From: Minisyncoccia bacterium
GTDB lineage: Bacteria > Patescibacteriota > Minisyncoccia > Phycocordibacterales > Zambryskibacteraceae
Length of the DNA stretch: 41,259 nt
Reading direction: 5' to 3'
Assembly: GCA_049304335.1 (NCBI GenBank)
Contig: JBAQOA010000027.1
Coordinates: 1-41,259 of the forward strand
The notes beneath the pieces were generated by a model. The model did not search any database. It was given only the letters and a program-made list of their open reading frames with translations, and was not told the DNA's origin. The translations under genes were made by a program, and so were the position numbers. This document shows, in pieces, positions 6,215 through 41,259 of this stretch (its first letter is position 1; each line of letters opens with the position of its first letter).

Positions 6215-6228
6215 TTTTGAATCCCACG

Positions 6229-6332
6229 ATCCCCCGTGAGATAAGCATTTTTAACTCTTATCTAAACTCTGATGTGAGATAGTATTTAAATTTTTTGGAA
6301 CACTACTTAAATTTACTATCTCACGGGGGGAT
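6229..6332 (-). promoter_or_regulatory. structured rpsA 5' leader with mutually exclusive pairings
   Basis: The segment TTAAATTTACTATCTCACGGGGGG (6308-6330) can pair with either of two partners. One is GTGAGATAGTATTTAA (6274-6289). The other is ATCCCCCGTGAGATA (6229-6243), which abuts the G-rich tract just upstream of the rpsA ATG. Confidence 0.45.
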
Positions 6333-6401
6333 TACGCGAGTTATTAATGGTTATTTCTATTAATCACCCGTCTTTCGAAGGGCACGGGAATAGTACAAGA
6401 G

Positions 6402-6436
6402 AAATGGCCGACCCGCAAGTGTGGGGTCGGCCATTT
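6402..6436 (-). terminator. intrinsic terminator of ORF 6451..6726
   Basis: AAATGGCCGACCC-GCAAGTGT-GGGGTCGGCCATTT. On the minus strand a T-rich run (TTTCTCTT) follows. Confidence 0.7.
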
Positions 6437-6450
6437 GTTTCTCACAAGAG

Positions 6451-6726
6451 TTAGTGCGGGTTCTTTCGCCTAAACTCCCGCTGGAACTCCACGCGTCTAA
6501 CCGTGGCGACGGAGTCCACATACTTCTTGAACTTCTTGCAGGTGGAATCCGGGACCGCCTCGCCGCGTTCCCACAGCGTGGGGATTGCAGTGAGGCCGAC
6601 TGATGTCGGCTCGACATCGCAGGGCGCCATTGTGCCAGCGGAGTGCTTGTTCTGCACTTCGTCGTACTTGAGCGCGCCAAATGTTATGGCGATGAGGAGA
6701 AACAGTATCAGCGTAACTACGCGCAC
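6451..6726 (-). CDS. small secreted or membrane-anchored protein (GC-rich islet)
   Basis: 91 aa. GTG start with AGGAG 8 nt upstream. N-terminal hydrophobic segment VVTLILFLLIAITFGAL. Two Cys residues. A terminator follows directly. Confidence 0.55.
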   Translation of the reverse strand: MRVVTLILFLLIAITFGALKYDEVQNKHSAGTMAPCDVEPTSVGLTAIPTLWERGEAVPDSTCKKFKKYVDSVATVRRVEFQREFRRKNPH

Positions 6727-6820
6727 GAAAAACTCCTATGTGAAGAGGGAAGGTACAGCAGACAATATTATAACAAATATTCTCGGGAATAGCAAATACG
6801 GAATTTTTATATAAAAGAAG

Positions 6821-6846
6821 AGCCCCTCGCTGCAAAGCGAGGGGCT
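6821..6846 (-). terminator. intrinsic terminator of ORF 6941..7504
   Basis: AGCCCCTCGC-TGCAAA-GCGAGGGGCT, followed on the minus strand by CTTCTTTTATAT. Confidence 0.7.
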
Positions 6847-6940
6847 AGGCTTCTAAGCCTTCTGTGTTTTTCTACCTTACACCGTCTCGACCGGTGTGGT
6901 AGTGAAAATGTTCACAATCCATCCTGTGAGGCCGGGCGGC

Positions 6941-7504
6941 CTAGAGTCGAGAGTAGAACCTCGGCGCGACCGGCGAAATTCCCGCAGCGTTGTCCGTCAT
7001 CGAGAAGACGTCGGAACATCGCAGGTAGAACGCGTTCTCCGTAGGTGTCGCGTTCCGATTCGCAGGGCTGGCCGCCACCTCACGGGGCGGCCGGTCGAGC
7101 GGCATGATGTTGCTGTAGCTTTTCCCCGAAAGGGGCCCCCAGGTCGATGCCGTGGCGTACGTGGTCGACGAGCAGCAAAGGTTGGTCTGCTGCTTGGCGG
7201 GCGGGCCGGTGTCGTAGAACGGCGTGGAGCCGTTCTCGGCGACAGGGGCTTCGACCGTCACGTCCAGCGTGCCGAGCGTGTTCTCAGCCTGGGCGGGCTT
7301 CTTGGCTGCCCAGCTGACGTCAACCGTCGTGGCGCTCGTGAGCGCGAAGCTCACATCGTACGGCGCAGCGAGGGGCGACTTCTGGCTGACCTGCTTGACC
7401 TTCGCTTCGGCCGCGTTGGCCGTGGGCGGTGCCATGGCGCCGGTCATCGCGATGGCGAAAATCGCCACCATGATGGGGTGCATGGTCTTGCGGGGCATCA
7501 TCAT
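6941..7504 (-). CDS. secreted protein (GC-rich islet)
   Basis: 187 aa. GAGAGG Shine-Dalgarno 6 nt upstream. Sec-type signal peptide MHPIMVAIFAIAMTGAMAPPTANA|AE. A beta-rich mature part follows (SFALTSATTVDVSWAA). It was chosen over the overlapping GC-rich frames because of the signal peptide, SD and terminator. Confidence 0.6.
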   Translation of the reverse strand: MMMPRKTMHPIMVAIFAIAMTGAMAPPTANAAEAKVKQVSQKSPLAAPYDVSFALTSATTVDVSWAAKKPAQAENTLGTLDVTVEAPVAENGSTPFYDTGPPAKQQTNLCCSSTTYATASTWGPLSGKSYSNIMPLDRPPREVAASPANRNATPTENAFYLRCSDVFSMTDNAAGISPVAPRFYSRL

Positions 7505-7673
7505 GCGGGCCTCTCGGCTCAGGTGATGGTGTTGGTAAAGTACTATCTGCCCTCAGGCAGGTAGTACCCACCGAGGAAAGGACATTATAGGAAATGGTTT
7601 TTTACTTGTCAATAGTCAGAATTTGTGGTGAAAAAAGTGGCTAAAATAGGCCATATTATGCTATAATAGGAGT

Positions 7674-8791: not shown

Positions 8792-11263
8792 ATGAAAAAG
8801 GAACCAGAAAAAGAAAAAATAATCGAGAGAGCAGAAGGTGCTGGCGTTGTTTCGCGCTCCATTGTTACGGAAATGAAGGAGTCGTATTTGGACTATGCAA
8901 TGAGCGTTATCACAGCTCGTGCGCTTCCAGATGTTCGTGATGGTTTGAAACCAGTGCATCGAAGAATTCTTTTTGCCATGCATGAAATGGGTCTTACTTC
9001 ATCCGCAAAGTTTCGAAAATCAGCAACAGTAGTAGGAGAAGTTTTGGGTAACTACCACCCACATGGTGATGCCGCTGTGTATGATTCCATGGTAAAACTT
9101 GCGCAAGATTTTTCTACGCGCTATCCGTTAGTTATCGGTCAGGGAAACTTCGGTTCTGTTGACGGCGATCAGGCTGCCGCTTACAGATATACAGAGGCAA
9201 AAATGTCTAAACTCTCTGGTGAAATCTTAAGGGATATTGAAAAAGACACTGTAGATTTTCGTCCAAACTATGATGGAAGAAAAATGGAACCAACTGTAAT
9301 GCCTTCTACTGTTCCTAACCTGCTTTTAAACGGCACATTAGGTATTGCCGTTGGAATGGCAACAAATATTCCTCCACACAACATAAAAGAAGTCGCTGAA
9401 GCGGTCTCATATTTTGTAGATAACGGCGATGCTTCCACAGAGGATTTGATGCAATTTATAAAAGGTCCGGATTTTCCAACGGGTGGTATTGCATACAGCG
9501 AAAGCGATATTCATCATGCTTATACAACTGGTCGTGGAGGAGTTGTGGTACGTGGCGTAGCAGAAATTGTAGAAAGTAAACTCAATCAGTTTCAAATAAT
9601 TATTACCGAAATACCTTACCGTGTTAACAAATCAGTTTTAATTGAAAACATTGCGAATTTAATTCACGAGAAAAAAATTGAGGGCATTCGTGACATGAGA
9701 GATGAATCTACCAAGGACATCCGTATTGTTATAGAACTCAAATCCGGCTCACAGCCACAAAAAGTTTTAAACTCTTTGTATAAACATACTCAATTAGAAG
9801 AAGCATTTCATTACAACTTGGTAGCAATAGTAGATGGTGTACCACAAACATTGGCACTCTCAGACATCATCGGAGAATTTGTGAAGCATAGAAAAATTGT
9901 AATCAAGCGCCGAACTGAGTTTGATTTAATGAAAGCAAAAGACAGAGAGCACATTTTGCTCGGCCTCAAAAAAGCGCTAGATCACATAGATAAAATCATT
10001 GCGCTCATCAGAAAATCTAAAGATGTAGAGACAGCGAAGCTTGCCTTGATGAAGGAATTTAAATTTTCGGAGAAACAGGCTGTTGCAATTCTCGAAATGC
10101 GTTTGCAAAAACTTGCTGGACTTGAAAGACAAAAAGTGGAGGACGAATTGAAGGAAGTACAAGCACTTATCGCTGAATTGGAAAGTATTTTGGCTTCATC
10201 AAAAAAAGTTTCAGCAATAATCAAAAAAGATATGGAAGACGTCATTGCTACTTATGGCGATGATAGAAGAACAAAACTTGTTAAACATGCTGCAAAATCA
10301 TTTTCAGTAGAAGATTTGGTGGCGGAAGAAGAACAAACACTCGTTTTAACTGCAGGTGGCTATGTAAAAAGAACAAAACCAGAAGAATATAGAAAACAAA
10401 AGCGTGGCGGCGTGGGAGTTATTGATTTAGATACAAAAGAAGAGGATTTTGTAACAAACATTTTATCGGCCTCAACACATTCCGACTTGCTATTCTTTTC
10501 AGATAAAGGAAAAGCTTACCAATTAAAAATGTTTGAACTTCCTGAAGGAAAGCGAGCCACGAAAGGTAAATCCATTGTGAACTATTTGGCTATTAGCGAA
10601 GATGAACGCATTACTTCAATCCTTCCTGTACCGAAAGAAACAAAGGCTCAAGAAGACACTTCATTGCTTATGGTCACAAAAGGTGGAATCGGTAAAAGAG
10701 TTTCAGCTGCTTCGTTTGCAGATGTGCGCTCGTCAGGAATTATTGCAATCAAACTTGATAATGGCGACAAGTTGCAATCAGTTTCAATATCAAGAAAGGG
10801 CGATACAGCAATTTTGGCAACAAGCGAAGGACAGTCCATACATTTTTCAGAAAATGATGTGCGCGAAATGGGTAGAACAGCAGGAGGTGTGCGCTTGATA
10901 CATCTAAAGGCAAAAGATTTTGTCGTTGGCGCAAGAGTTATTCCAAAGGCTGACAAAGAAAGAGCACAACTACTAACAGTTGCTCAAAACGGTTATGGAA
11001 AAAAGACTCCACTTGATGAATATAAAGTGCAAAAAAGAGGGGGCTCGGGTATCAAAACAGCTCAAGTAACAGCCAAAACAGGAAAAGTGATGTCTGCCTC
11101 AATTGTTCTATCTGATGAGGAAGAATTGGTGACAATTTCTAAAAAGGGACAAATTATTCGTGTGGGTACGGACGAAATTCCATCTCTCGGCAGACAAACT
11201 CAAGGAGTAAGAATCATGAAATTGAGAGAAGGGGACTCACTTGCTTCGGCAGTTTGTCTATAA
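8792..11263 (+). CDS. gyrA: DNA gyrase subunit A
   Basis: 823 aa. [26 protein letters not shown], the active-site Tyr region [10 protein letters not shown], and C-terminal beta-pinwheel repeats. Confidence 0.95.
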
Positions 11264-16305: not shown

Positions 16306-16527
16306 TGAGCTTTCTCCGAGGGGTTTTGAAGCGTGATGAAACGATGTGATGTACTTATATCTGGGTACTGATAGAAGTATAGCATACTGGCCACCCATTG
16401 TCAAGCACTAAAATCCAACCCATATGCGTAGGTTTTACTTAGTAATTTTGTATTAATTACAATACATTTTCGTCGTTCGGATTAAATACAAAAGTAAACT
16501 TTTGTGCCGAATCCTCACTTCTCACTG

Positions 16528-16608
16528 TGCCGAGGAGAGGACTTGAACCTCCACCCCTTGCGGGACTTGCTCCTAAGGCAAGCGTGTCTGCCATTTCACC
16601 ACCTCGGC
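16528..16608 (-). tRNA. tRNA-Leu(UAG)
   Basis: 81-nt cloverleaf. Acceptor stem GCCGAGG/CCTCGGC, anticodon loop CTTAGGA, long variable arm, T-arm GGAGG-TTCAAGT-CCTCT. No encoded CCA. Confidence 0.9.
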
Positions 16609-16795
16609 ATATTTATAGCTTACATGTTTAATTACTAAGCTTCTACTGCTTGTCGTCACGAATCACTAAATGTTTTGTTCTTCCAGACAAAACATTCAAG
16701 TGTTCGCGACCCCGGCTCGCAATTCCGATCTTTGCGGAATATAGCTCCGCCTCGGACAAGTGCGATAAAAATGTCGCAGACATTTTTCTGCCTTG

Positions 16796-16868
16796 TCCGC
16801 CCACTAGGGTTCGAACCTAGGACCTTATCCTTAAGAGGGATCTGCTCTACCAGCTGAGCTATGGGCGG
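16796..16868 (-). tRNA. tRNA-Lys(CUU)
   Basis: 73 nt. Acceptor stem CCGCCCA/TGGGCGG, D-arm GCTC-AGCTGGTA-GAGC, anticodon loop CTCTTAA, T-arm CTAGG-TTCGAAC-CCTAG. Confidence 0.85.
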
Positions 16869-17065
16869 AATACAAAAATATTAACAGATTTTGGCTTAAT
16901 TAAAAACCGTTCTTCGCTAATAGAGCTTCTCGAAAATATAGGAGAACCTTTTCGATTCCCAAGCAAAAACAAATAAATTTGTTTTTTGTGTCGGTTACAA
17001 CACACCTGCGTCGTTCGCGCCCAATAAGTTAGCAAGCTTTCTTACTCGGCGCTCTCTCCTTGTTG

Positions 17066-17147
17066 TGCCCCGGGTGGGAATCGAACCCACATCCCTTGCG
17101 AGACACGATTTTAAGTCGTGCGCGTATACCAGTTCCGCCACCGGGGC
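17066..17147 (-). tRNA. tRNA-Leu(UAA)
   Basis: 82 nt. Acceptor stem GCCCCGG/CCGGGGC, anticodon loop CTTAAAA, long variable arm, T-arm GTGGG-TTCGATT-CCCAC. Confidence 0.9.
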
Positions 17148-17213
17148 AAACATTGACCTACCTATTTTTACATACTCTCGCATTTTTGAGAAAAAAGCTA
17201 TAATCAACAGATC

Positions 17214-24480: not shown

Positions 24481-24539
24481 AGCTTACGCGTCGGTGGTAG
24501 AGCTTGCCCCGCCATGGCGGGGTGAAGTCAATTACAACA
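24481..24539 (+). pseudogene. duplicated 5' half of tRNA-Tyr carrying a 25-nt hairpin insertion
   Basis: AGCTtAcGCGTCGGTGGTAGAG ... TCAATTACAACA repeats 24781-24817 of the intact gene (acceptor 5' strand to anticodon-stem 5' strand). The D-loop TGG is replaced by CTTGCCCCGCCATGGCGGGGTGAAG. Confidence 0.7.
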
Positions 24540-24782
24540 ATGTGGCATGTCTACGTTCTCAAAAGCCTAAAAACCAATAAATATTATATTGGATGTTCAA
24601 ATAATTTACCCAGAAGATTAAGAGAACATAACTCCGGAAAAAATATCTCAACAAAATTTGGAATACCGTGGGCATTAGTCTACGAAGAATTATTTGAGGA
24701 TCAAAAGCAGGCTTTCGATAGAGAAAAAAAGATAAAATCATATAAAGGTGGAAATGCGTTCAAAAAATTGCTAGATTTATAG
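24540..24782 (+). CDS. GIY-YIG nuclease superfamily protein (small stand-alone URI domain)
   Basis: 80 aa from the ATG at 24540. MWHVYVLKS...KYYIGCSNNLPRRLREHN...E...K gives the GIY, YIG, Arg and Glu landmarks. The track's upstream TTG start would read through the tRNA fragment. Confidence 0.8.
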   Translation: MWHVYVLKSLKTNKYYIGCSNNLPRRLREHNSGKNISTKFGIPWALVYEELFEDQKQAFDREKKIKSYKGGNAFKKLLDL

Positions 24783-24787
24783 CTAAT

Positions 24788-24870
24788 GCGTCGGTGGTAG
24801 AGTGGTCAATTACAACAGACTGTAAATCTGTCGCCTTCGGGCTACGAAGGTTCGAATCCTTCCCGGCGCA
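24788..24870 (+). tRNA. tRNA-Tyr(GUA)
   Basis: 83 nt. Acceptor stem GCGTCGG/CCGGCGC, anticodon arm ACAGA-CTGTAAA-TCTGT, long variable arm, T-arm GAAGG-TTCGAAT-CCTTC. Confidence 0.9.
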
Positions 24871-24883
24871 CAAAATAAAATAG

Positions 24884-24899
24884 CTTGGCTTTTGCCAAG
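24884..24899 (+). terminator. small stem-loop after tRNA-Tyr
   Basis: CTTGGC-TTTT-GCCAAG, followed by ACCATTTTATTT. Confidence 0.45.
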
Positions 24900-24919
24900 A
24901 CCATTTTATTTAACGTTGC

Positions 24920-25048
24920 GAAGGGTTCGAACTGTTGGAAGGGGGTCGGGGAAACGAGAGTTTCCCGTGCCGGAACAATTTAAACCGACGGGTTTAAAAG
25001 CGCAGTCCCGCTAGGGCGGGACGAGCAGTGAGATTCCTTCCCGGCGCA
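24920..25048 (+). repeat. tRNA-3'-end-linked GC-rich structured module, copy 1 (next to tRNA-Tyr)
   Basis: GAAGG-GTTCGAAC ... AGTGAGA-TT-CCTTC-CCGGCGCA. The interior blocks are shared with 41133-41259. The 3' 18 nt are identical to the tRNA-Tyr 3' end. Confidence 0.6.
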
Positions 25049-25055
25049 CAAAGAA

Positions 25056-36795: not shown

Positions 36796-36837
36796 TTAAT
36801 TATTGACAAAATATAATTACAAAGTAAAGTAAATATA

Positions 36838-37141
36838 GAACAGCACAAAAGACCGACTGGGTAGACTCCGCGGAATTCCATCCGCTCGAGGGGACTCAGT
36901 ACAGAATGAATCTAGGTTGGCAGTGGGCCACAGAGAGCGCTAGCCCGGCTAAACATCAAACGCCGCGCAAACCCTCCACCATTTCCGGGGACAGTCCTTG
37001 GACCCCCGTCAGAGATGCAGAACGCCCAACTATCTCAACCAATTTTCGTGGGAAGTAGATTTTTACTTCCTTTGTGGAGCGTCAAAACTCCCGGTCGAAC
37101 CATCGCGCTCACCCTGATTAAAGGGTGAGCGTTTTGTTTTT
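36838..37141 (+). ncRNA. unassigned structured RNA candidate, unit 1 of the ORF-free GC-rich locus
   Basis: A possible promoter lies upstream: TTGACA at 36803-36808, 16 nt, then TAAAGT. The GC-rich body contains hairpins such as GGAAGTA-GATTTT-TACTTCC. It ends in the terminator CGCTCACCCT-GATTAA-AGGGTGAGCG-TTTTGTTTTT (37106-37141). Confidence 0.4.
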
Positions 37142-37184
37142 CATAAATTTTGTAAATTTGACAATTTTATATATTTTGTGTTTG

Positions 37185-37863
37185 AACTTTTTAGGAGCTT
37201 GACTGTGGATAACTGTTTCTGTAATGTCTCTGCCAGACCGTTCTTAGACAAGTTGATTGGTTCATCTGGCAAAGAACAAACGGCAGATAAACCGCGGGGC
37301 AACCCACGGAAAATCCACCGCAAGTTCGTAGAGCCCGCAAGAGCTCTGCATCTGGTCGCCGTTCACGGCTACACCCAACTGTTACGACTAGCATACGGGT
37401 TAGCTAGTCGAGACATAACAGGCCGCAGTCCTCACGAGGGATTATCGGCAAGGGAAAATCCAAGTTTCGCTATCATGCGTCGGCAAGATAGTTTCGTACG
37501 GACTTCAAAGTCCATACGAACATCCCGCCTATCCACATAGGCGACGATGAAAACAAGGTACCAGAAAAGCAAGAACCAATGAAGACGGCCAGACCTCCAA
37601 AGTCCAGCCGATCCAAGGAAGTAAGCGAGGATGAAATCTCGCTGAAAACCTCGGAGTTGCGGATCGTCAATCCGCTCCTTCACGCACGAAGTTTCCGAAA
37701 GGAAACCCGTTGAACCTCGCTTCGGCAAGGTCCATCGCCTCTCCAGAGAGGTAAGTGCACAGCTTGTCACCCTTCTAGGGCGTATAGGTTCTGATGACCG
37801 AAAGGCCATAAGAATCCTCGCGCCCCCAAACGGGCGTCCTTCTACACGAAGGGCGCCCGTTTT
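37185..37863 (+). ncRNA. unassigned large structured RNA candidate, unit 2
   Basis: About 680 nt without a credible ORF. Tetraloop-capped hairpins include CCGCGGG-GCAA-CCCACGG (37292-37309) and GTTTCC-GAAA-GGAAAC (37691-37706). There are also an 8-bp stem at 37385-37410 and a 12-bp stem at 37493-37520. It ends in the terminator at 37828-37863. The 5' end is uncertain. Confidence 0.35.
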
Positions 37864-37904
37864 CACGTATTAGGTTGAAGTATTTTGTTTTATAAGTACT
37901 ATCC

Positions 37905-38135
37905 ACTGCAGAAAGGATGCACATTCACAGGTATGCAGCGGTCCCTCCCCGTGGCTACGTCCGTAAGGGCGGAAGCTATTTCAGTGATTCTTGGGCGAGA
38001 TTGGACTCTCCAATGACTGTGTTCGTGACAAGTGCTTAGTCGTGTTTGCACTTGTTCTAGTCGCGCTTGCATGCCACGACTGGACATCCGAAGTTTTGGG
38101 CGCGCATCCGTACAGGGTGCGCGCCCAATTTTTTT
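37905..38135 (+). ncRNA. unassigned structured RNA candidate, unit 3
   Basis: A possible promoter lies upstream: TTGAAG at 37875-80, 16 nt, then TACTAT. The body has nested stems such as AGTCGTG...CACGACT. It ends in a strong terminator, TTGGGCGCGCA-(11 nt)-TGCGCGCCCAA-TTTTTTT (38096-38135). Confidence 0.35.
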
Positions 38136-41016: not shown

Positions 41017-41087
41017 TGGGGGATCGTCTAATGGTAGGACAGTAGCCTTTGAAGCTATTAATTTTGGTTCGACTCCAAGTCCCCCAG
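41017..41087 (+). tRNA. tRNA-Gln(UUG)
   Basis: 71 nt. Acceptor stem TGGGGGA/TCCCCCA (U1-A72), anticodon loop CTTTGAA, T-arm TTTGG-TTCGACT-CCAAG. Confidence 0.85.
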
Positions 41088-41132
41088 CTAGTGAAATTTA
41101 AATAACTCCTGTTATGCAAATTTTACTTACGG

Positions 41133-41259
41133 CTTGGAGTCGAACACAGGAGCGGGGGTCGGGGAGACACGGATTGTCTCCCCGTGCAGGAAGGCAGTCC
41201 TGAGCGAAGTGAGGGGCGTTGGAAAACCGTCGGTTTCCAAAGAGTGAGACATCCAAGTC
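41133..41259 (+). repeat. tRNA-3'-end-linked GC-rich structured module, copy 2 (next to tRNA-Gln; truncated by the window end)
   Basis: CTTGG-AGTCGAAC ... AGTGAGA-CAT-CCAAG-TC. The left 13 nt are the exact reverse complement of the tRNA-Gln T-loop plus 3' T-stem. The interior blocks are shared with 24920-25048. Confidence 0.6.

Follow-up and report, generated by a model that had tools for sequence, protein, structure and literature searches.

Short gene-free modules with a conserved fold lie directly 3′ of tRNA genes in Patescibacteria and may be miniature integrative elements

The subject of this work is a short non-coding module that follows tRNA genes, two copies of which lie in the stretch of DNA analysed here, the 41,259-nt contig JBAQOA010000027.1 of a Minisyncoccia bacterium (assembly GCA_049304335.1), referred to below as the window. 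The window is an ordinary chromosomal region of Patescibacteria (Paceibacterota/Parcubacteria type) with about 40% GC, and includes the genes for FtsA, Pth, S1, GyrA, IF-2, IscS, ClpB, L33, MiaA, ParB, TopA, DprA, SerRS, Dus and DnaX; the named relatives of its DnaX protein belong to Paceibacterota, Kaiserbacteria and Minisyncoccota. One module (copy 2) follows the tRNA-Gln gene and runs to the right-hand end of the window, while the other (copy 1) follows the tRNA-Tyr gene in its interior. The sequence of copy 1 is also present in a second assembly (L092; such labels denote sequences outside the window).

The initial annotation had noticed that copy 2 begins with 13 nt, CTTGGAGTCGAAC, that are the exact reverse complement of the tRNA-Gln segment GTTCGACTCCAAG, and this match was confirmed. 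Allowing for up to one mismatch, the 13-mer occurs twice in the window, once on each strand, with 0.03 occurrences expected from shuffled sequences. Copy 2 (41133-41259) and copy 1 (24920-25052) have in common the block GGGGGTCGGGGA-hairpin-CCCGTGC, a hairpin with AAACCGNCGGTTT and the motif AGTGAGA; GGGGGTCGGGGA is found in the window at 24941 and 41154 only (0.01 expected from shuffles). In nhmmer and blastn searches within the window, the stretch 3′ of tRNA-Tyr was the sole place resembling copy 2, and nhmmer aligned 41098-41192 with 24876-24975 (E=0.006). A covariance model (R1), built from 13 members of the family described below with both window copies among them, gives these two 64.2 and 59.3 bits (E about 1e-13 to 1e-14). 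That alignment and these scores bear out the proposal that the two copies are homologous.

Further members were searched for with the pattern TCGAAC-N6-10-GGGGTCGGGG-N8-32-CCGTGC, taken from the two window copies. In the species genomes of the Genome Taxonomy Database (GTDB) it gave 39 matches, six of which were real, all six in metagenome-assembled genomes (MAGs) of the candidate phyla radiation (CPR); the remainder were chance matches in high-GC genomes. Scanning metagenomes with the pattern added five distinct members, and a relaxed search added a third copy within one MAG (L014:1839-2000). The total is 14 distinct copies, including those of the window, all from Patescibacteria/CPR genomes or metagenomes, and each of the 14 immediately follows a tRNA gene on its 3′ side and shares its orientation. 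The architecture that had been described at two different tRNAs recurs beside at least ten tRNA species at 11 further Patescibacteria loci. The targets are tRNA-Tyr and tRNA-Gln in the window and tRNA-Lys, Arg, Gly, Asp, Pro, Asn, Tyr and Met elsewhere, together with two further tRNAs interrupted by group I introns (L026 970-1183; L047 3092-3457, minus strand). These introns match Rfam Intron_gpI with 48.6 and 45 bits, slightly below the gathering score, and both tRNAs are missed by ARAGORN; a tmRNA upstream of these two copies was considered and rejected in favour of the intron-containing tRNAs. All upstream tRNAs score 54-75 bits against the Rfam tRNA model. The MAG JBASTP01 carries three copies, at tRNA-Lys, tRNA-Arg and tRNA-Gly, with cores that are 90-99% identical.

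No family of Rfam 15 matches any of the modules, even at permissive E-values of up to 1-10. Two scans of IMG/VR returned chance matches only, in high-GC contigs, and blastn against the INPHARED phage and PLSDB plasmid collections found no similar sequence; on these grounds a phage or plasmid origin was rejected. No account of such an element was found in the literature, and the family appears to be undescribed within the libraries and papers searched. There are no open reading frames (ORFs) within the unit. Integrase, transposase and reverse transcriptase are absent from the window, in whose long ORFs Pfam finds no Phage_integrase or transposase domain, and a Pfam scan of the ORFs neighbouring the modules at L014, L036, L041 and L045 likewise gave no integrase or transposase domain. 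The neighbours at the other module loci look by eye like housekeeping genes.

Along the plus strand the order of parts is tRNA, spacer, P1a, a joiner ending in GGGG, hairpin A, a variable middle, P1b and a repeat of the tRNA 3′ end (Table 1). The unit, measured from repeat to repeat, is 176-247 bp long, and the conserved core takes up about 110-160 nt of it. In most copies the spacer holds a hairpin between A and T runs; a terminator scan of copy 1 and L014 calls it on either strand in both. What copy 2 has at this position is a weak hairpin, ATAAC-TCCT-GTTAT (41102-41115), with a T-rich stretch after it. P1a consists of a T-stem 5′-like strand, 2 nt and UCGAAC. It is followed, after the joiner, by hairpin A with its invariant foot GUC-GGGG...CCCC-G-U-GC, the most conserved block of the family. 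The variable middle is GUGC-N-GGAR plus a hairpin B with an ACC-GNNG-GGU top in subtype A, and GGGGUGAC...GGGCGGAAGCCC in subtype B; the form seen in copy 2 is common to L049 and L065 and differs in other subtypes. A GAGCG..GCGACGA-like stretch leads on to P1b, which is made of GUGAGA, 2-3 nt and the T-stem 3′ strand, and beyond it lie the acceptor 3′ strand and the discriminator, with at most 5 extra bases. Around 60 nt of the core, GGGGUCGGGGA-hairpin-CCCCGUGC, are almost invariant over distant CPR lineages. A consensus scan of copy 1 and L014 gave no module promoter, and the A/T-rich hexamers 5′ of P1a are inconsistent.

Table 1. Features of the two module copies, their target genes and a putative remnant (positions in the window)
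Feature	Position	Strand	Basis or remark
Solo P1a-like remnant TTGGGAATCGAAA	16950-16962	-	11/13 match to reverse complement of tRNA-Leu(UAA) T-loop and T-stem
tRNA-Tyr(GUA), target gene of copy 1	24788-24871	+	ARAGORN; Rfam
Hairpin AGCTTGGC-TTTT-GCCAAG, A and T runs either side	24882-24912	+	terminator scan, called on both strands
Copy 1 module	24920-25035	+	covariance model, folding, sequence
Copy 1 P1a, GAAGGGTTCGAAC	24920-24932	+	
Copy 1 hairpin A	24948-24966	+	
Copy 1 hairpin B	24979-24998	+	
Copy 1 hairpin C	25005-25022	+	
Copy 1 module end, GAGCAGTGAGATT	25023-25035	+	
Copy 1 right 18-nt direct repeat, TCCTTCCCGGCGCACAAA	25035-25052	+	left copy at 24857-24874
tRNA-Gln(UUG), target gene of copy 2	41017-41088	+	ARAGORN; Rfam tRNA, 61 bits
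tRNA-Gln T-loop and T-stem 3′ strand, GTTCGACTCCAAG	41067-41079	+	sequence
Copy 2 AT-rich spacer (44 nt)	41089-41132	+	sequence; comparison with other copies
Copy 2 P1a, closing-helix 5′ strand, CTTGGAGTCGAAC	41133-41145	+	CTTGG (complement of T-stem 3′ strand) + AG + TCGAAC
Copy 2 J1, purine-rich joiner with invariant G run at its end, ACAGGAGCGGGG	41146-41157	+	alignment
Copy 2 hairpin A and invariant foot, GUC-GGGGAGACA-CGGAU-UGUCUCCCC-G-U-GC	41158-41187	+	pairing, covariation
Copy 2 variable middle: GC-AGGAAG-GC small hairpin, then AGTCCTGAGCGAAGTGAGGGGCG	41186-41218	+	comparison of copies
Copy 2 hairpin B, UUGGAAAACC-GUC-GGUUUCCAA	41219-41240	+	11 copies, same fold from different sequences
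Copy 2 P1b, closing-helix 3′ strand, AGA-GTGAGA-CAT-CCAAG	41241-41257	+	pairing; CCAAG = T-stem 3′ strand
Copy 2 truncated direct repeat of tRNA-Gln tail, TCCAAGTC	41252-41259	+	equals 41074-41081; sequence, L001

The secondary structure is conserved together with the sequence. In hairpin A, 97% of the cells pair and three pairs show compensatory changes, with a covariation score above that of 500 out of 500 shuffles and of all slid controls. Hairpin B forms in 11 copies from differing outer-stem sequences; its outer stem covaries and its ACC/GGU top is conserved. Copy 1 folds with a minimum free energy of -54.9 kcal/mol (z=-4.5). The core is closed by the helix P1, in which UCGAAC faces GUGAGA via a tandem G.A/A.G mismatch located at T-loop positions 55-56, and the tRNA-specific part of this helix pairs better with its own partner (-6.0 kcal/mol) than with those of other copies (-4.2 kcal/mol; permutation p=0.00025). 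Judging from these pairings, the reverse complement with which the module starts is better read as P1a, the strand that pairs with the 3′ end of the module itself; it looks like a reverse complement of the tRNA because P1a complements P1b, and P1b copies the end of the tRNA T-loop and the T-stem. By its sequence, P1 is a double-stranded copy of the T-loop/T-stem 3′ segment of the tRNA gene, carrying a two-base mismatch.

Nothing in the unit covaries with the acceptor part of the repeat (cognate pairings -10.6, non-cognate -10.5 kcal/mol). Cut down in copy 2 and mutated in the tRNA-Arg copy of L014, this part behaves like a footprint and not like a structural element. Several other ways of reading the ends of the module were rejected: a pseudoknotted acceptor stem or tRNA-like 3′ end, the acceptor copy being without a cognate-specific partner; a tmRNA, or a tRNA with an intron, on the minus strand, for which neither ARAGORN nor Rfam gave anything and no acceptor partner exists; an origin of P1a by fold-back or snap-back, the adjoining spacer not being complementary to the acceptor strand (L014); and a 5-bp duplication of Tn7 type around P1a and the repeat, which matched nowhere consistently.

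The repeat of the tRNA 3′ end measures 8-23 nt, and 15-23 nt in nine copies. In copy 1 it is a perfect repeat of 18 nt, spanning from the last T-loop base to 4 nt beyond the discriminator, where shuffled sequences give an expectation of 0. The window itself ends in AGAGTGAGA-CAT-CCAAGTC (41241-41259), in which the initial annotation saw the tRNA-Gln tail being copied again, with CCCCAG, the acceptor 3′ strand, to follow. The first part of this claim holds for the 8 nt TCCAAGTC. For the rest, the Logan contig L001, from another assembly that has an identical DnaX protein and is identical to the window over the tRNA-Gln-to-module stretch read, extends 5 nt past 41259 and reads ...CATCCAAGTC|TATTA instead; the tail repeat of copy 2 is counted as only 8 nt for this reason. 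Both assemblies end at 41259 or within 5 nt of it, and a population variant with the full repeat (CCAAGTCCCCCAG) may exist. The genes 3′ of tRNA-Gln are unrelated in every relative and offer no ortholog-based route beyond 41259.

CCA is part of the repeat only where the gene encodes it (L036 and L055), and repeat identity runs 4-5 nt into flanking DNA that does not belong to the tRNA, CAAA in copy 1 and CAAAC in L039. The repeat therefore tracks the gene and not the mature tRNA, which indicates an event at the level of DNA; the sequences point to DNA-level integration. At L014 the ATG of the downstream ORF (6898) abuts the right repeat (6883-6897), just as tRNA-Gln is abutted by the next gene in the empty site of L082, and the right repeat therefore preserves the original junction between the tRNA and its flank.

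These same features of the repeat bear on the idea that the module is an RNA-based mobile or processing unit, which we regard as improbable. In one version it would be a small ribozyme or guide whose P1a can pair either with the T-loop/T-stem of the upstream tRNA, by 13 Watson-Crick pairs in copy 2, or with the 3′ end of the module; two equivalent sites would thereby be spaced by one unit, an arrangement found in rolling-circle satellite RNAs and retrozymes. In another, a minus-strand transcript would have a 5′ end antisense to the tRNA tail, resembling a primer-binding site. Indeed, P1a is perfectly complementary to the actual tRNA and meets its own 3′ end only via a mismatched helix, the unit is bounded by the near-identical sites UUCGA-NN-T-stem and GUGAGA-NN-T-stem, its length falls within the range of viroids and satellites, and a terminator working on both strands (copy 1, L014) would suit a convergent minus-strand transcript. 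Against this, CCA is missing from the repeat where the gene does not encode it, and the mature tRNA was therefore neither template nor primer; no ribozyme family of Rfam 15 was matched, the core motifs of hammerhead, hepatitis delta virus (HDV) and hairpin ribozymes are absent, and no reverse transcriptase is found near the copies in the window or at the module loci scanned.

Relatives with an empty site were found for tRNA-Gln. In four of them (L082, L087, L093 and L095, with 85, 82, 80 and 76% DnaX identity), tRNA-Gln lies downstream of dnaX, separated from it by another gene in L093 and L095, and is not followed by a module: R1 gives no score above noise in any of the four, and in L082 the next gene begins at the base directly after tRNA-Gln. 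The empty sites hold no P1a-like sequence, and P1a therefore arrives together with the unit. What follows tRNA-Gln instead differs from relative to relative, being a PemK toxin and GmrSD in L093, DNA methyltransferases and a large serine recombinase in L095, and unrelated small ORFs in L082 and L087; tRNA-Gln is an integration hot spot in these genomes, with different downstream genes in every relative. For tRNA-Tyr no such comparison was obtained, since synteny around an 86-aa ORF and an APH gene is lost in the relatives. As a separate observation, L082 carries at 11053-11075 a 5′ fragment of tRNA-Gln (TGGGGGATCGTCC...) about 45 nt upstream of the intact gene, which may be the scar of an earlier rearrangement.

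Four relatives with an empty tRNA-Gln site and the recurrence of the module at many tRNAs together exclude an accident of local duplication, and in this respect the first interpretation, of a site-specific process at tRNA ends, stands. The repeat of copy 2 is admittedly short (8 nt), and the palindrome TTCGAA inflates matches to an inverted T-loop. Nevertheless, with shuffle expectations of 0-0.03 for the key motifs and 14 homologous copies at different tRNAs in different genomes, we give next to no credence to the idea that the resemblance arose by chance or that the tRNA 3′ region was duplicated locally on a single occasion.

A hot spot of this kind could also collect remains of larger elements. 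The units might then be att-proximal arms left by deleted prophages, integrative and conjugative elements (ICEs) or integrative mobilizable elements (IMEs), that is, scars resembling cis-mobilizable elements (CIMEs) and without activity of their own; integration at tRNA 3′ ends in these genomes, the varying cargo behind tRNA-Gln (methyltransferases and a large serine recombinase in L095, PemK and GmrSD in L093) and a repeat footprint such as integrases leave are all in keeping with it. The borders of the units are too regular for this explanation to persuade us, and we consider it a long shot. In each of the 11 copies whose upstream sequence could be read, the tRNA is no more than about 250 nt away and the unit measures 176-247 bp; with borders so uniform, independent deletions are unlikely, as they would not stop alike each time. 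Furthermore, the core structure is maintained by compensatory changes and the core occurs in no phage or plasmid record of IMG/VR, INPHARED or PLSDB. Serine recombinases are not known to leave repeats of 15-23 bp.

Decayed units were found beyond the right repeat of several copies. L063 repeats the spacer and P1a with a period of 176; L036, L046 and L055:782-816 retain a second terminator and P1a; and L026 retains ...TAGA and a mutated copy of the tail. In the window, the sequence TTGGGAATCGAAA, which lies after a terminator 102 nt 3′ of tRNA-Leu(UAA), is by its sequence likely to be the left end of a third, decayed unit. In the minus-strand cluster to which this tRNA belongs (16380-17160; tRNA-Leu(UAA), tRNA-Lys and tRNA-Leu(UAG)), the spacers following both tRNA-Leu genes have a stem-insert-stem-GAACGACG layout (GAGCGCC...GGGCGC-GAACGACG and GGATTCGG...AATCC-GAACGACG), and that following tRNA-Lys has GGGGTCGCGAAC ... 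GTGACGACAAGCAGTAGA. Another family of structured spacers linked to tRNAs may be represented here, or else decayed modules.

The best reading of these data is a process aimed at the part of tRNA genes that reaches from the T-loop to the 3′ end. A direct repeat of this part next to an intact tRNA gene is what tyrosine integrases classically leave behind on Campbell-type integration, and such repeats reportedly mark tyrosine-integrase elements such as P4. With a confidence that lies only a little above even, we take the family to be one of miniature non-autonomous integrative elements targeting tRNA 3′ ends in Patescibacteria. A unit would begin with a tRNA tail that replaces or duplicates the original one, continue in most cases with a terminator hairpin and then with the core closed by P1, and finish with a second tRNA tail. 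It would integrate into DNA by an integrase-like, Campbell-type event at an att site extending from T-loop to 3′ end, catalysed by a recombinase supplied in trans. The left tail and the terminator would restore the gene, and the right tail would be the displaced original; older units would be moved outward as new ones arrive at the tRNA. Propagation would depend in cis on the conserved core together with P1. In the version that we prefer, by analogy with the attP of CTX phage and the attC of integrons, the element would fold as a single strand in which P1 mimics the target duplex. We know of no precedent for an element of about 200 bp with zero genes and a conserved folded core closed by a helix that resembles the T-loop/T-stem of its target.

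A number of observations sit uneasily with such an element. No recombinase is associated with any of the copies, the pattern scans gave no autonomous parent with the same core, and none of the phage and plasmid records searched carries the core. A double-stranded circle of 180-250 bp is an awkward substrate for integration. An element that restores a tRNA must already carry the tail of that tRNA, while near-identical cores are found at different tRNAs (L014 Lys and Arg and L039 Gly; copy 2 and L049). The tail repeat of copy 2 comprises just 8 nt. In the tRNA-Arg copy of L014 (1839-2000), which has a 12-nt spacer, no terminator and a core about 99% identical to that of the tRNA-Lys copy 5 kb away, the right repeat TTCCCTGCCGGGCTCA differs from the tRNA-Arg tail; gene conversion between the cores, or insertion at a secondary site, are possible explanations. 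Folding z-scores do not differ between the two strands. Finally, the core is almost invariant from a Candidatus Saccharibacteria MAG (L036) to the Paceibacterota/Parcubacteria-type relatives of the window, and near-invariance over such distant CPR groups could equally mean a function for the host.

Such a function would be that of a host non-coding RNA family, transcribed with the tRNA or just after it as a structured 3′ trailer, in which the tRNA-like end and P1 are functional. The RNA might be a processing signal for tRNA 3′-end enzymes, or act on the cognate tRNA or its gene as a guide or decoy, and would have spread anciently among tRNA loci, its copies being kept alike by gene conversion. 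Much of what is conserved agrees with this: the primary sequence shared between distant CPR lineages (GGGGUCGGGGA...CCCCGUGC, UCGAAC, GUGAGA), the covarying hairpins, the plus-strand folding energy (lower in 12 of 13 copies), the P1 mismatch (a tandem G.A, common in RNA, on the plus strand and U.C/C.U on the minus strand) and the U.G pair, invariant on the plus strand, in the foot of hairpin A; the mismatch and this pair both fit a plus-strand sense. Wobble and A.C counts in P1 are by eye balanced between the strands. Cores within one genome that are near-identical between different flanks fit concerted evolution, and at the tRNA-Arg of L014, where 12 nt and no terminator separate gene and module, co-transcription is likely. 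Most copies, on the contrary, have a terminator-like hairpin between tRNA and module, bidirectional in copy 1 and L014, and in these two the module has no promoter; shuffle z-scores favour neither strand. The module is missing at the same tRNA in the four closest relatives found, and truncated units are common. The acceptor repeat lacks a covarying partner and, lost or mutated in copy 2 and in the tRNA-Arg copy of L014, looks dispensable, and its extension into non-tRNA flank (CAAA in copy 1, CAAAC in L039) is a footprint in DNA. Taking both sides into account, we find a host RNA unlikely; were it one, it would be a new class of conserved non-coding RNA in CPR.

Returning to the preferred reading of a miniature integrative element, a bolder form of it is conceivable but, in our opinion, rather doubtful: the modules would form a new class of mobile elements limited to CPR, about 200 nt long and protein-free, whose fold rebuilds the T-arm duplex of the target from the element's own ends. 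Folded as single strands, they would exploit a recombinase of the host in order to move, or else they would move by an RNA activity of their own (guide or ribozyme), and both strands of the helix would be re-specified whenever the tRNA changes. If true, these would be among the smallest site-specific integrative elements known, without any gene, and widespread in a very large, little-understood radiation of bacteria whose way of life depends on taking up DNA. Such elements raise the questions of which recombinase or RNA activity moves the unit, how its specificity is rewritten for at least ten tRNAs and why a core of about 60 nt is near-invariant. The family merits an entry in RNA and repeat libraries, and it accounts for contigs that break, and for odd "partial tRNA" calls, beside tRNA genes of CPR MAGs.

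Other features of the window were also recorded. An ORF for a GIY-YIG nuclease (84-92 aa; 24504-24782) ends 5 nt 5′ of tRNA-Tyr, and in L084-L086 (L084 12101-12355) an ORF resembling it overlaps tRNA-Gln at its start; a link between this nuclease and the module was rejected, the ORF being absent at the other module loci checked. Two GC-rich stretches (36796-38066 and about 6215-7673) have 49-52% GC compared with about 40% overall and contain overlapping ORFs only. They gave no Pfam domain, no Rfam match at E<0.1 and no blastn similarity in the loci of the relatives, ORF-free gaps at equivalent positions included. Between 14326 and 15208 a 63-nt segment occurs three times in diverged form (62-71% identity) with spacings of 380 and 440 nt, among small ORFs without a Pfam domain; these are probably tandem paralogous genes for small membrane proteins.

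Among known systems, several could be set aside directly. A derivative of IS200/IS605 (palindrome-associated transposable element, PATE) or a TnpB omega-RNA should come without a target duplication, whereas the units have a repeat; tnpA and tnpB are not found nearby and Rfam gives no match; an omega-RNA with a guide identical to the restored tRNA at the left end would moreover target its own locus. A tRNA, tmRNA or tRNA-like structure was rejected, since ARAGORN and Rfam call the upstream tRNAs only and nothing within the unit covaries with the acceptor copy. In six Rfam searches with E up to 1-10, no module was matched by known self-cleaving ribozymes (HDV-like/theta, hammerhead, twister, hairpin and others) or by group I/II introns, all intron matches falling on upstream tRNAs or 23S rRNA. 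A retron non-coding RNA was likewise rejected: a closing inverted repeat exists, but a reverse transcriptase gene lies near none of the copies in the window and at the scanned loci. Theta ribozymes after phage tRNAs, ROOL, GOLLD and 3′ external transcribed spacer (3′ETS) trailer RNAs are also conserved structured non-coding sequences located just 3′ of a tRNA, but they have no sequence or structure match to the module in Rfam 15, and none of them is flanked by a tail repeat or closed by a helix copied from the T-arm.

MITEs (miniature inverted-repeat transposable elements), including those derived from casposons at tRNA 3′ ends, are likewise small, non-coding and multi-copy, with imperfect inverted repeats and a flanking direct repeat, and casposons duplicate about 14-15 bp of the tRNA 3′ end. 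Unlike them, the module has a repeat of 8-23 nt with variable borders, and no parent transposon or Cas1 was found. In place of terminal inverted repeats and a duplication of fixed length, P1a is internal, 39-58 nt from the left repeat in most copies, with outliers of 12 and 126 nt. CIMEs, att-flanked derivatives of ICEs or IMEs that lack a recombinase and are mobilised in trans, share with the units their non-autonomy, the att-like repeats and the accretion in tandem. CIMEs, though, are kilobases long, are recognisable as ICE derivatives and have no conserved RNA-like core, whereas no related ICE or integrase was found here.

The elements of tyrosine integrases at tRNA genes (P4-like phages, islands) resemble the units in more respects: they insert 3′ of an intact tRNA, leave a direct repeat of 15-23 bp from T-loop through acceptor, stack in tandem at one tRNA and are present or absent among relatives. 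Of the marks by which they are recognised, the tail repeat flanking the unit with an intact tRNA and, at tRNA-Gln, the empty and occupied sites were found, but not an integrase beside the att site, the unit being of 176-247 bp without an ORF, and no integrase domain lying nearby in the window or at the loci scanned. The units also differ from them in being tiny and gene-free, without a parent found, and in having a structured core and an internal inverted copy of the T-loop/T-stem.

The attP(+) of CTX phage, used by XerCD as in other integrative mobile elements exploiting Xer (IMEX), and the attC of integrons anneal inverted, target-like half sites into a mimic of the target with a central mismatch, and such elements can be very small and free of ORFs. 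The target here is a tRNA gene in place of dif or attI, and a single-stranded intermediate of the module is hypothetical. Neither an integron integrase nor a cassette array occurs in the window. Compared by eye with the R-box of attC (RYYYAAC / GTTRRRY), (A/T)TCGAAC and GTGAGAT match at 5-6 of 7 positions, and they pair. With respect to the fold of CTX type, the sequence of P1 corresponds to a duplex of T-loop and T-stem with two mismatches that is specific to the tRNA of its own copy.

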